From: a virus
Lineage: Duplodnaviria > Caudoviricetes
Reading direction: 5' to 3' (one strand)
IMG/VR virus record: IMGVR_UViG_3300037692_000137
Span: 128,001 to 192,000 of that record
Length of the DNA: 64,000 nt
Part shown: positions 19,205-54,221 of the stretch, piece by piece
How positions within the stretch are numbered: position 1 is the first letter of the stretch
How the letters are laid out: each line of letters begins with the position of its first letter
Notes under the pieces: generated by a model
The model's database searches: none
What the model saw: the letters and a program-made list of their open reading frames with translations, nothing else
What the model was told of the DNA's origin: nothing
Made by a program: the position numbers and the translations under genes

Positions 19205-20611
19205 TTAATTATTATGCATTATGTATTTTAAATTACCACAATCCCATATACGATTATAGCCCTGTGCTTTACGTAAAGTACGCTCTGACATAGTGGAGCC
19301 ATTAGGTTTTCTGAGGCCATATCTATGATAACGTTTAGTATTATTTTTAAAATACCAATAGTTACAAGCAGTGCTATATGAGTAGTTAAAGCCTATATTT
19401 GCGTATAACTCACCAGTAGACCAGCGTCGATCAGCAAAAGAAAACACACTTTCCCAAATGTGATTACGTTTAAAGTAGGTAAGTAGTTTAGAGGCTATAC
19501 CAACAACACGTAGATTTAATTTAGAACAAAATCTATGTAGTTCCCAAGTATCTTTATACTTGTCTTTTGCCCCCTTAGCCAAAGATGGTTTTGAAAAGGT
19601 CATCACTGCTATTAAAGTCTGGTTATAAAAGGCACCGATTTTTATAGAAGCGCCGGCACCGTAACCCTGAAGATGGTTTTCTTCACAAAACATACGCGCC
19701 TCTTTTACAGAAATTTCTTGTATACGGCATTTTCTGGCATATACACTAGTTAATTTAATCCCTATTAAACTTGAAAGGCGCGATAAAACTATAGGTTTCT
19801 TAGTTATATACTCATCTTCAAAAATAGTTATTAGTCTGTAACCAGCTTCTAAACAACGTTCTAGTTTGTTTATATGATAAGAGCTGTCTTTATTACAGGC
19901 ATCAGAGTGCCAATATAAACCGCAATATTCAATAGCAATTTTTTTGTCAGGGATTACTATATCAAGTTCATATGGGCTTATAATGTCACGTACTCCGGTA
20001 TGTACAGTTATACCAAAATTTTTGATAAAAGCAATCAGCTCTAATTCTGGTTTTGAGCTTCCTGCTAAAGAGCATGTAGGACACCTAGAACCACAACTAT
20101 TCCAATTATCCCAACTAACTTTATAAACATGGTTGTTAGGGCACACACATTCTAATTTAGTTTTATTGTTGATATAAGAAGTTGTTACTAATGCGTAACC
20201 TTCTAATGACAGTTGTTGTCCTATATTGTCTAAGTAGTTTGGACTATTATGTGCACAGTGCGGGCATCTATGTCCAGATACCCAGTTGCTCATTACAACC
20301 TCGTACTTATGTCCTTTTGGGCATAAAACTTGTAAAGGGGTTTTATTATTAATATAAACAGCACTTAATAATTTGTACCCTTCCAATGCTATACGTTTGG
20401 CAATTTCTTCGATGGTTGGTGTATTATTACCGGCACAATAAGGACATCTAGCGCCGTCACGCCAATGATCCCACTTGATACTATGTTTGTGTCCATTAGG
20501 ACACTCATATAATAGTTTTGTAGCGCTATTTATGTACTCTTCACTAATTAACTTATACCCGGCTATATTAAATGATCTGCTTATGTAATCGTAAGTAATT
20601 TTTTTAGGCAT
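19205..20611 (-). CDS. Free-standing homing endonuclease: 3 Zn-finger repeats + PD-(D/E)xK/Vsr-like domain + Hef-like C-terminal domain (468 aa)
   Basis: Three ~58-aa CPxGH...RCPxC repeats; ELDIVIPDKKIAIEYCGLYWHS; ARKC..EIS, NHLQG, WELHRFCS, FADRRWS, RIWDCG as in T4 Hef-like proteins. Confidence 0.75.
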   Translation of the reverse strand: MPKKITYDYISRSFNIAGYKLISEEYINSATKLLYECPNGHKHSIKWDHWRDGARCPYCAGNNTPTIEEIAKRIALEGYKLLSAVYINNKTPLQVLCPKGHKYEVVMSNWVSGHRCPHCAHNSPNYLDNIGQQLSLEGYALVTTSYINNKTKLECVCPNNHVYKVSWDNWNSCGSRCPTCSLAGSSKPELELIAFIKNFGITVHTGVRDIISPYELDIVIPDKKIAIEYCGLYWHSDACNKDSSYHINKLERCLEAGYRLITIFEDEYITKKPIVLSRLSSLIGIKLTSVYARKCRIQEISVKEARMFCEENHLQGYGAGASIKIGAFYNQTLIAVMTFSKPSLAKGAKDKYKDTWELHRFCSKLNLRVVGIASKLLTYFKRNHIWESVFSFADRRWSTGELYANIGFNYSYSTACNYWYFKNNTKRYHRYGLRKPNGSTMSERTLRKAQGYNRIWDCGNLKYIMHNN

Positions 20612-49886: not shown

Positions 49887-50494
49887 TTTTTTGTCTCCTT
49901 TATGTTTATAACATTTTCTACAAAGTAGTCTAGCTTCTTGTACAAATCATCTGTGCTACCATTGTTAGCAATAACGTAGTGTGTAGGAAGATTGTTATCA
50001 TCTAAAGCTGTCTCAGTTTCGTGCTCTTCACCATTTATGAAGGGCCTATTATTTCTTGTAATACGGATGTGGTAACCACCCCTATCTAGTACAGCCTTAA
50101 CTTCATTAGGTTGTCTTAAGTCTGTAATAATAACATTCCCAGCAACAACGTTACGAAATAGCGCTTTGACCCAGTAATCATTATCAAAGGAACGCATAAA
50201 TTGACCATATGCCTGCATCATTTCTCTTGGAGTCCAAAACCCTCCAGTTTGTTTAGGATAACGCTCGTCTTGAATTTCCTTTAAATCACCATATACCTGT
50301 GTGTAGCTTAAATTAAACTTTTCTATTAAATCTTGTTTCAATGTGTTGGCATACGCTGTTATATAAGTGTTGTAATATACAGCGCCTATTTTGTTATACA
50401 GATAAGTACCAGCGGTATCTTTACCCACCCGCGCCTTTCCTGAAATACCTATTAAAATACTTTCTTTGTCCTTTACCGTCTCCATGTAAATCAC
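49868..50494 (-). CDS. Deoxynucleoside monophosphate kinase (208 aa)
   Basis: IGISGKARVGKDT P-loop, TPREMMQAYG, W, VIITDLR..NE, HETE. Confidence 0.88.
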   Translation of the reverse strand: MIYMETVKDKESILIGISGKARVGKDTAGTYLYNKIGAVYYNTYITAYANTLKQDLIEKFNLSYTQVYGDLKEIQDERYPKQTGGFWTPREMMQAYGQFMRSFDNDYWVKALFRNVVAGNVIITDLRQPNEVKAVLDRGGYHIRITRNNRPFINGEEHETETALDDNNLPTHYVIANNGSTDDLYKKLDYFVENVINIKETKKWQAKQ

Positions 50495-50507
50495 CTTATA
50501 TGTATTG

Positions 50508-50786
50508 CTATATTGTTAGGTAGAATGCATTACCTTGTCTAGATACCTTACCCCATCGACTGTTGTCTTGTTGCACTGGAGTATCATAATGATATCTAGG
50601 TTTTATTACTTTGTTATTATAGCATATACATTTGCTACTGTCAACCATATTCTTTTCAATTACTGTAGTATCTACAGTACAGTTAACTATAACTGGCATA
50701 TCATTGATAAGTAATAATATTGTTTTATACCTAATACCTAAACATATAGCATATATTCTTTTTAAAACGCCGGATGCTAAAGTCAT
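50508..50786 (-). CDS. Hypothetical protein (92 aa)
   Basis: Packed ORF on the coding strand; start uncertain. Confidence 0.35.
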   Translation of the reverse strand: MTLASGVLKRIYAICLGIRYKTILLLINDMPVIVNCTVDTTVIEKNMVDSSKCICYNNKVIKPRYHYDTPVQQDNSRWGKVSRQGNAFYLTI

Positions 50787-52203: not shown

Positions 52204-52683
52204 TTATAAAATCTTTACTTCTGTTGCCTGAATACCCTTCTCTGTGTTCTTTAAAATAAAACTTACTGGTTGGCCTGCTTTAAGTGTTTTATAGCCATCC
52301 ATATCAATACTTGTAAAGTGGATAAAATACTCTGCATCGGGGTTACCATCAATTAGTACAAAACCATATCCCATATATATTCGAGTAAGATCGTTAAACT
52401 TACCCCGTCTATAATTTCTAGACAGCTGCATGTTTCCATACAGATTAGACTATATCACCAACCAATCTGGTTGCTACGCGCTTCCACTCACTTGAGTGTA
52501 CTTCCTTTCGGAATAGTCGTTGCAGGTTCCTCATTAATAGAGGCTTCCCTCAGGATTGTCCTCGACTTGACGTTAGGATATTCCCTGAATTCACGTAGTT
52601 TTTCAAATCACATTACTGTAAAAAGCCGCCTATGGACGGTCGTTAGAAAACCATTTTACAACACCATTAATTCTTTCTTCCAT
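52204..52683 (-). CDS. csp: Cold-shock domain protein, spliced (exon 1 52636-52683, exon 2 52204-52371; 71 aa)
   Basis: Joined exons give MEERINGVVKWFSNDR|GYGFVLIDGNPDAEYFIHFTSI...YKTLKAGQPVSF, with intact RNP1 and RNP2; AAGGAG RBS before exon 1. Confidence 0.92.
52372..52635 (-). ncRNA. Group I self-splicing intron (subgroup IA-like, 264 nt, no endonuclease ORF)
   Basis: 5' exon ends in U, intron ends in G; P1 CCGU/C-GGCGG with U.G at the splice site; P3 CUACGU/GCGUAG; P4 UCAGG/CCUGA; P7 GACUA/UAGUC; P7.1 UUCC-GAAA-GGAA; P7.2 CACUC-AAGU-GAGUG; P9 with GAAA loop. Confidence 0.92.
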
Positions 52684-52741
52684 AACTCAAACTCCTTTAG
52701 TTTTTTATTTATATTATGATGATTGTAAGTCACCACGTAGT

Positions 52742-53231: not shown

Positions 53232-54221
53232 TTATAGCTGTGCAGCCATTAAACACCCGGCAGCGACACAGGTCATAGGTGAGGTGGCTCTTCTAATTTC
53301 GCTAATAGCCATAGGAAGTACTATACCAGACAAACGGTCTTCAAACATTTTAGTAAAGCCGTCAGCCAACGTCAGTCCGCCAGAAACAATGATTGGTACA
53401 GGCTCTCTAAAGATAGGTAGTTTCTTTTCTTGCTTTTTTAACTCATATGAAATATTTTGAAGCACGTAATTAATTACTGAAGAATAGTAAACTGATATAG
53501 CCTCAGAAATTTTATCTTTGGGGTTGTACAAATCTATACCTGCTTCTTTTTCTAACTGAACTAATGATGGTGACATATCTAAAGCAGTGCCAACTGAATG
53601 GTCAATAAAATCTCCTGATCTTGTTACAGAAAATTCTACTAAGGGGTCACCTTGATGAATTACAGCTATGTTGCACATACCAGCGCCAAAAGACAGTGTA
53701 ATACCAGTTAAAGAGTCGTCTAACAACTCACTTAAAGCTATAGCAAAGGCTTCATTTATTGGCTGCCCTATAAAACCTTTTTCACGCATGAACATGTTTA
53801 GTATCTCTGTGTGGTAAACGATATCAAAATTACCGTCTACTGGTTTTGCTGGGACACTGTATACTAAAGGCTCGTCGCCGGAGCCTTTACCAATTAAGCT
53901 ACTTAGCAACAATTTAAGCATTGGAAGGCTGCTTTTTTCTTTAGGGGATATTACCCCCTTAGACATAGGGCGGCTAGATACATCATTACGTTCCATTGCT
54001 ATATGTAGAGCATCTTCTCCTACTACAATGAAGTCATTACCTTCTTCTATAAAGTTGGAGCCTCTTTTTTCTAGTGACTTTTTGATGGCTTGTTTATTAA
54101 CGTCACTCTTTGGAACTATTCTATAAAAAGCATCACGCTCCATCTTAAATACGGGATTACCCTCTTTATCTATAGAACCACACACCAACATATTAGTACC
54201 AACATCAACACCTTTTGACAT
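53232..54221 (-). CDS. Actin-like ATPase (MamK/MreB-like) (329 aa)
   Basis: Phosphate-1 GVDVGT, VVGEDA, RPMSKGV, SVPA, connect-1 INEAFA, phosphate-2 SFGAG, SGDFID, adenosine VSGG, connect-2 VAAGCL. Confidence 0.82.
   Translation of the reverse strand: MSKGVDVGTNMLVCGSIDKEGNPVFKMERDAFYRIVPKSDVNKQAIKKSLEKRGSNFIEEGNDFIVVGEDALHIAMERNDVSSRPMSKGVISPKEKSSLPMLKLLLSSLIGKGSGDEPLVYSVPAKPVDGNFDIVYHTEILNMFMREKGFIGQPINEAFAIALSELLDDSLTGITLSFGAGMCNIAVIHQGDPLVEFSVTRSGDFIDHSVGTALDMSPSLVQLEKEAGIDLYNPKDKISEAISVYYSSVINYVLQNISYELKKQEKKLPIFREPVPIIVSGGLTLADGFTKMFEDRLSGIVLPMAISEIRRATSPMTCVAAGCLMAAQL

Follow-up and report, generated by a model that had tools for sequence, protein, structure and literature searches.

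An ORF-less intron of group I in the RNP1-coding sequence of a phage cold-shock protein gene, and its probable spread by homing

The stretch of DNA analyzed here (the window, 64,000 nt) is part of an uncultured 234,228-bp sediment phage contig of IMG/VR, with a CheckV completeness of about 89%. On its minus strand (-), to which all coordinates of the locus below refer, it carries a cold-shock protein gene (csp) in two exons. A Shine–Dalgarno sequence, AAGGAG, can be read at 52692..52697, 8 nt 5′ of the ATG of exon 1 (52683). Exon 1 (52636..52683) has 16 codons, MEERINGVVKWFSNDR, and ends in CGU, the last base of which takes part in the U.G pair of helix P1. Exon 2 (52204..52371), recognized by its translation and its match to the CSD profile, reads GYGFVLIDGNPDAEYFIHF...KIL before the stop codon (that is, GYGFVL...KIL). 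An in-frame TAG (52630..52632) occurs after CCA, two codons inside the intron, so that translation of the unspliced message would give a peptide of 17 aa.

The two exons join in frame, with GGA UAU GGU UUU following the junction (predicted ligated sequence AACGACCGU/GGAUAUGGU, the slash marking the joint), and encode a cold-shock protein of 71 aa. The intron stands between the codons for R16 and G17 of the RNP1 motif (RGYGFV). With Pfam CSD (PF00313), the joined protein scores 69 bits (cut-off 27) over profile positions 2–64 of 66; with the CspB structures 1c9o and 1hz9, it aligns at an E-value of 1e-15 and gap-free across the junction ('VKWFNNEKGYGFI' against 'VKWFSNDRGYGFV'). Both RNP1 and RNP2 (YFIHF) are present in the spliced product and align to CspB. 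The bacterial CspA and CspB proteins (PDB 1mjc, 1c9o, 1csp) likewise consist of a single CSD with RNP1 and RNP2, but the csp gene of the window is phage-encoded and interrupted within RNP1. The junction peptide KWFSNDRGYGF is read contiguously in an intronless allele of a related phage (L015). Exon 1 of the window lacks a Ser codon that is present in relatives. No other CSD gene occurs in the whole phage genome.

The intron (52372..52635, 264 nt, ORF-less) belongs to group I, subgroup IA2 type, an assignment based on RF00028, covariation, and identical copies elsewhere. With cmscan, RF00028 (Intron_gpI) matches positions 52645..52426 (-) over the full model (1–253) with 86.0 bits (gathering threshold 50). 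A search of the whole phage genome with RF00028 gave only an intron in a glycosyltransferase gene; cmscan clearly detects the csp intron. The P1 hairpin (52624..52641) is formed by the exon sequence GACCGU (52641..52636) and the internal guide GCGGCU (52629..52624), and the Rfam alignment places the 5′ splice site after U52636, in a wobble pair with G52629. The 5′ strand of P3 (52598..52593) and the P4–P5–P6 domain follow (together 52524..52598; RNAalifold and pair counts). P7 pairs GACUA (52518..52514) with UAGUC (52452..52448) and covaries, with U–A replaced by C–G in 3 of 19 introns. Within its span (52448..52518) lie P7.1 (52513..52502), P7.2 (52498..52485), the 3′ strand of P3 (52479..52474), and P8 (52473..52459). 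The hairpins P9, P9.1, and P9.2 (52383..52443; RNAalifold and pair counts) stand 5′ of the 3′ splice site, and the terminal G (ωG, 52372) is the sole G that allows an in-frame join. There are no sense-strand ORFs in the 264 nt apart from a mis-called csp frame.

For the covariation analysis, 19 related introns were taken from viral and metagenome contigs. From these, RNAalifold recovers P3, P4, P5, P6, P7.1, P7.2, P8, P9, P9.1, and P9.2 unaided; P7 (100% paired) was entered as a pseudoknot before the pairs were counted. Over 12 helices, 98.4% of 1,110 cells are paired, versus 74.1% in shuffles, none of which (0 of 500) reaches 98.4%. Sliding the partners by 1–3 columns lowers the paired cells to 35%–45%. 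Compensatory changes occur in 47 of the 59 pairs, and in P7.1 and P7.2 all 8 pairs covary. Flanked by P7 and by the 3′ strand of P3, P7.1 and P7.2 make the intron one of the IA2 type, common in phages. The same core with P7.1/P7.2 is found in the phage IA2 introns of T4 (td, nrdB, nrdD), of Staphylococcus phages (Twort/K-like), and of Bacillus phages (SPO1-like); compared with these known compact introns, the host gene here is csp and the phage an uncultured one of 234 kb. With blastn, the core is 70%–79% identical to introns of Staphylococcus, Vibrio, Escherichia, and Pseudoalteromonas phages.

An earlier note on this DNA had described a compact group I intron at these positions, exactly in RNP1, and the Rfam score and the in-frame exons bear this out. 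All the elements it named (P1 with its U.G pair, P3, P4, P7, P7.1, P7.2, P8, P9, and the terminal G) are present, and the Infernal comparison with a group I model that it proposed yields the RF00028 match at an E-value of 1.7e-20. Judged on its sequence, the ribozyme is structurally intact. External guanosine would attack after U52636, and ligation of the exons after G52372 would yield the normal 71-aa cold-shock protein. Self-splicing of the csp pre-mRNA by the standard group I mechanism is the most likely fate of the transcript, an activity that we infer from the sequence.

In uncultured relatives, the genes occur in the syntenic order volactin, lysozyme, csp, orf227 (227 aa), and orf142 (142 aa). 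The actin-like volactin (53232-54221 (-) in the window; Pfam Volactin, 217 bits) stands beside the csp locus in all of them. At csp itself, three states are found. Intronless genes occur in L015 (72% protein identity), L016-18 (56%), and L052 (62%) and read KWF(S/N)(N/D)(D/A)RGYGF. At site A (TGG T/TY, the slash marking the insertion point), introns occur in L012-14/L056/L061, L051, L055, L058, L059/L087, L067, L069/L083, L081, L082, and L156. Site A is 14 nt 5′ of site B, inside the Phe codon of KWF, and its guide is GCCCUU. Site B (CGT/GGA) is occupied in the window, L080, L146-L155, and L158-L160; the intron of L050 is left out of both lists. The site-A contigs L012-14/L056/L061 share 95% identity with the window in exon 2. 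The intron of L051 is a 207-nt short form. At the RF00028 gathering threshold, the introns of L051, L059/87, L081, and L082 are not called; even so, the introns of L059, L081, and L082 can be aligned with the others and show the same pairing.

Two side observations concern site-A contigs. In L082 (Ga0315533_1000988), which has both volactin and the site-A csp intron, a match to the class-A bacterial RNase P RNA (RF00010, 172 bits) at L082:12001-12264 (-) adjoins an array of 9 tRNA genes and may be a phage-borne RNase P RNA. In L070 (12381-12636 (-) and flanks), exon 1 of a glycosyltransferase gene (MSEKIKLLVYADTPSCATG) is followed by a site-A-type intron and then by csp exon 2, an arrangement that reflects either recombination of one intron copy with another or a chimeric assembly made at a repeated intron.

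In the contigs of four groundwater DNA runs, the L013-type allele is the major one (depth 576–699) and the window type the minor one (6–28). There, the resemblance between the L013 type and the window breaks off exactly at 52371/52372. Among these same contigs, we observed neither a joint skipping exactly 52372..52635 nor a near-identical intronless allele. A pattern scan of 185,579 species genomes found no split csp gene: all 31 matches were false positives, 30 of them contiguous csp genes, mostly of Paenibacillus and Brevibacillus, and one (L116) not csp. The pattern demands the exact sequence GATATAGTC and so undercounts; L156, for example, carries GATATGGTC. As a separate matter, csp genes of Paenibacillus, Brevibacillus, and other Bacillota (L088-L117) share the exact GATATAGTC 5′ of the start codon, 83–90 nt before the GYGF codons, where it may be a conserved leader element; these shared copies account for the false matches of the scan.

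Between the lysozyme gene and csp, L080 carries, at L080:1281-2159 (-), an ORF of 292 aa with an HNH motif that ends 22 nt before the csp ATG; its score with Pfam HNH (18.6 bits, E 0.002) lies under the cut-off of 21.4. A gene of 290–292 aa (with one call of 281 aa) is present directly 5′ of csp in all 13 of the other site-B contigs inspected, in two of which the nuclease gene is cut by the contig end. These belong to 19 further contigs, from several groundwater and sediment samples, that were reached through a mis-called 75-aa protein. The gap to csp is 22 nt where measured. The site-B intron is 100% identical in 10 of 10 other contigs tested, and the nuclease in 4 of 4 (two of these cut by the contig end). 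In the window, no nuclease gene adjoins csp, and the lysozyme gene ends 58 nt 5′ of it. The earlier note had suggested a search for intronless alleles and for a trans-acting endonuclease; the former exist at the syntenic locus (L015, L016-18, L052), and for the latter there is a candidate in the HNH-type gene directly 5′ of csp in the site-B relatives.

Nucleases also stand near csp elsewhere in the series. The layout recurs in site-A lineages, with nucleases of another family: ORFs that combine CapR-like repeats with HNH adjoin csp in L051, L058, L067, L081, and L083, and in L058, L059, L067, and L083 the matches to HNH_2/HNH are over the Pfam cut-off. In L059/87, a frameshifted copy of the CapR-HNH ORF lies beside csp. 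L082 has CapR-like repeats in this place, joined to another C-terminal domain whose motifs look Vsr-like. L069 and L083 have identical csp introns, and an HNH gene separates the amidase gene from csp in L083 only, a second instance of one intron occurring both with and without a nuclease. An HNH gene is found as well 5′ of the intronless csp of L016-18, which means that the adjacency of the nuclease does not need the intron. Paralogs with CapR repeats and HNH occur in the genome of the window phage, at 20045-20605 (-) in the window and at 50266-50745, 101069-101605, and 113009-113889 of G000. Over G000 113009-113326, identity with the C-terminal part of the nuclease linked to csp in L080 reaches 55%, and this paralog is a candidate for a trans-acting enzyme on grounds of that similarity.

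A 317-nt tract of the window (52364..52680), which takes in exon 1 beginning with its second codon, the whole intron, and the first 8 nt of exon 2, is 100% identical to the L080-type phages. Over the 932 nt that follow, the window shares 93.4% identity with L080 and 92.8% with L013, and L080 shares 97.0% with L013; the informative sites of this flank split 49:15:10. By our own arithmetic, zero mismatches over 317 nt at a divergence of 6.65% have a probability of about 3e-10. Since so long an identity is set in flanks diverged by about 7%, the intron cassette has a history different from that of its flanks, and we read the tract as a probable co-conversion tract. The spacer 5′ of the csp ATG in the window is short, like that of the nuclease-less L013 type. 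The cassette would have entered the backbone of the window by recombination, with a conversion tract ending before the nuclease gene.

In the genome of the window phage, a second group I intron interrupts a GT4 glycosyltransferase gene (L005:13291-13554 (-); about 71.8–72.8 kb of G000), with exons reading ...DTPTC and ATGFG... on the two sides (MERKTKILCYMDTPTC and ATGFGTV...). A free-standing CapR-HNH gene (L005:13612-14301 (-)) lies 57 nt 5′ of the glycosyltransferase gene. The two introns, both of 264 nt, are 78% identical over their whole length. By comparison, the window intron shares 52%–63% with the site-A csp introns and 57%–76% with other members of this widespread family. Between the two sister introns, P1 shows a compensatory change from C–G to U–A (ACCGU/GCGG in csp, CCUGU/GCAG in the glycosyltransferase gene). 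In a maximum-likelihood tree, the site-A introns form one clade (100/99) and the window intron pairs with the glycosyltransferase intron (92/92). Forcing all the csp introns into one clade is 7.4 log-likelihood units worse (AU p 0.031), a marginal test in which the group was named after the similarities had been seen. The csp gene would thus have been colonized by introns at least twice, by two lineages at two sites. An exact 35-nt module of P7.1–P7.2 (TTCCGAAAGG...GGAAGCG) is common to the introns of 26 IMG/VR contigs (L119-L144), which by their flanks lie in different genes (DNA polymerase, capsid-like) and the remainder of which diverges. Because it is so common, in 26 contigs and many genes, this module was rejected as evidence of kinship between the two introns of the genome, and the whole-intron identity and the tree were used instead. 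The same genome, outside the window, contains a match to the Pistol ribozyme (RF02679, 65 bits; L009:12162-12231 (+), about 203662-203731 of G000), 1.4 kb 5′ of a c-di-GMP-I-GGC riboswitch (L009:13591-13669).

Taken together, these comparisons favor an intact ORF-less IA2 intron, likely self-splicing, that is probably present because of selfish collaborative or trans homing and not because of regulation. The intron would be the partner of the free-standing HNH-type homing endonuclease encoded directly 5′ of csp in relatives. By analogy with the S-PM2 and T4 precedents, the nuclease would cut intron-less csp alleles near the conserved RNP1-coding sequence, repair would then copy the intron in, and the intron would shield its carrier from cutting. 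The footprint of lateral transfer is there, in the 317-nt tract and in the intronless/site-A/site-B polymorphism at a syntenic locus. The window phage would have received the cassette without the nuclease gene; since the tract of conversion stops at the start codon of csp, the intron is in this sense an ‘orphan’ in the window and, with no nuclease adjoining csp there, the homing partnership is deduced from the relatives.

Such arrangements have precedents. In the case of Zeng, Bonocora, and Shub (2009), as set out in PMC6083498 and PMC3984707, the psbA intron of cyanophage S-PM2 and the adjoining free-standing F-CphI undergo collaborative homing. There, as in the relatives here, the nuclease gene lies beside the intron-bearing gene and intronless alleles occur in related phages; in the present case, however, the host gene is csp, the nuclease is of the HNH and not of the Endo VII type, and the window has no adjoining nuclease. 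In T4, the nrdB intron, with its defunct I-TevIII, is mobilized in trans by the free-standing HNH enzyme MobE (PMC2790892). The likeness is in an intron without a nuclease of its own, apparently moved by a neighboring HNH gene with co-conversion of the flanks. Unlike the nrdB intron, that of csp has no remnant of an ORF at all, and the evidence is a comparative identity tract here and genetic crosses there.

Other readings of the locus touch on its product, its activity, its purpose, and its origin. A 75-aa ORF (52204..52431, product MQLSRNYRRGKF...) was predicted by gene callers; its frame is uninterrupted and starts with an ATG, and it could be the true product, in which case there would be no splicing. 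Its first 19 codons, however, come from the intron (P9 to the 3′ end, P9 to P9.2), no Shine–Dalgarno sequence is seen before its ATG, its N-terminus is absent from homologs with the other intron or with none, and the strand β1 (KWF) is missing. With Pfam CSD, this product reaches 48.6 bits over positions 13–64 only (69 for the joined protein). We hold it to be next to impossible as a real protein; the earlier note had already called it wrong, and with its start inside the intron and CSD positions 1–12 absent, it is an artifact. The mis-call recurs in a public protein collection (a cluster of 3 members; 21 contigs read). A dead intron, with an inactive ribozyme and a csp that would here be a pseudogene or a source of fragments only, might be suspected from the missing ORF and adjoining nuclease in the window and from the missing Ser codon of exon 1. 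But the Rfam match is full-length, the window forms all the recovered core helices, P7 included, the exons are in frame with the ribosome-binding site intact and both RNP motifs kept, and the intron recurs unchanged in 11 or more contigs of several samples, so that we find inactivity very improbable.

The earlier note had gone further and proposed that a cold-shock protein behind a ribozyme could form a feedback loop or a temperature sensor: splicing would depend on temperature or on RNA chaperones, perhaps on the cold-shock protein, and would gate csp. Cold-shock proteins melt nucleic-acid structure, the phage has no CSD gene besides csp, and csp was invaded at least twice, all of which can be counted for this proposal. 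For the td group I intron of T4, folding is rescued by RNA chaperones (PMC3017892). The Ll.LtrB group II intron is reported to act as a cold sensor (PMC7293003), a precedent for temperature-gated ribozyme splicing that controls host-gene expression; that intron is of another class, and cold sensing is experimentally supported there and only proposed here. Against the proposal, the relatives L015, L016-18, and L052 manage without an intron, two different introns occupy two different sites, the family is found also in unrelated genes (DNA polymerase, capsid, glycosyltransferase), and the association with homing nucleases, together with the identity tract, accounts for the presence of the intron without any function. 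The comparative data are those that a selfish mobile intron predicts: presence and absence at a syntenic locus, two lineages 14 nt apart, nucleases 5′ of csp in most intron-bearing relatives, and a 317-nt identical tract. The sensor part of the earlier note finds no support in these comparisons, and we regard a regulatory role as improbable. A different doubt concerns how the intron came to csp. The glycosyltransferase intron of the same lineage could have entered csp by reverse splicing at the RNA level (ACCUGU to ACCGU) and spread later by ordinary recombination, with the nuclease uninvolved. The two introns are each other's closest (78%; 92/92) and of the same length, the 5′ exon ends are alike, and the guides differ by one compensatory change; yet an identity of 78% means an old split, and the close coupling of identical intron and nuclease gene (in 13 of 13 contigs inspected) points to homing at the DNA level in the current spread. 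Reverse splicing we consider a tentative, rather unlikely route; it would bear on the origin alone and leaves room for the main reading of how the intron spread afterwards. The identity of the intron copies could also reflect a very recent shared descent of the segment by ordinary recombination, without the nuclease.

A selfish intron moved by homing remains, then, the reading that we prefer. Homing elements aim at the most conserved stretches of conserved genes, and an intron in the RNP1-coding sequence fits this rule. A 2014 review gives genes for DNA polymerase, ribonucleotide reductase, and terminase as the typical intron hosts in phages (PMC3984707). We found no report of a csp gene interrupted by a group I intron in the literature searched, that review included, in agreement with the earlier note, which knew of none. 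The csp gene, and specifically its RNP1-coding part, thus joins the short list of phage group I intron hosts. For annotation, the locus is a case in which gene callers get intron-split csp genes wrong, with the 75-aa artifact already in a public collection. The improbable regulatory proposal could be tested at little cost and, if true, would deserve notice: production of the only cold-shock RNA chaperone of the phage would hang on the correct folding of a ribozyme, the cold-shock protein or the temperature would tune synthesis of that protein in a positive or negative loop built from a mobile intron, and such autoregulation could help explain the at least two colonizations of csp. With regard to mobility, one locus offers an unusually complete natural series, with csp free of introns, introns of two lineages at sites 14 nt from each other, an orphan copy in a mosaic background, and nucleases that are present, absent, or frameshifted. 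This series could help in studying how ORF-less introns and free-standing nucleases cooperate and compete.
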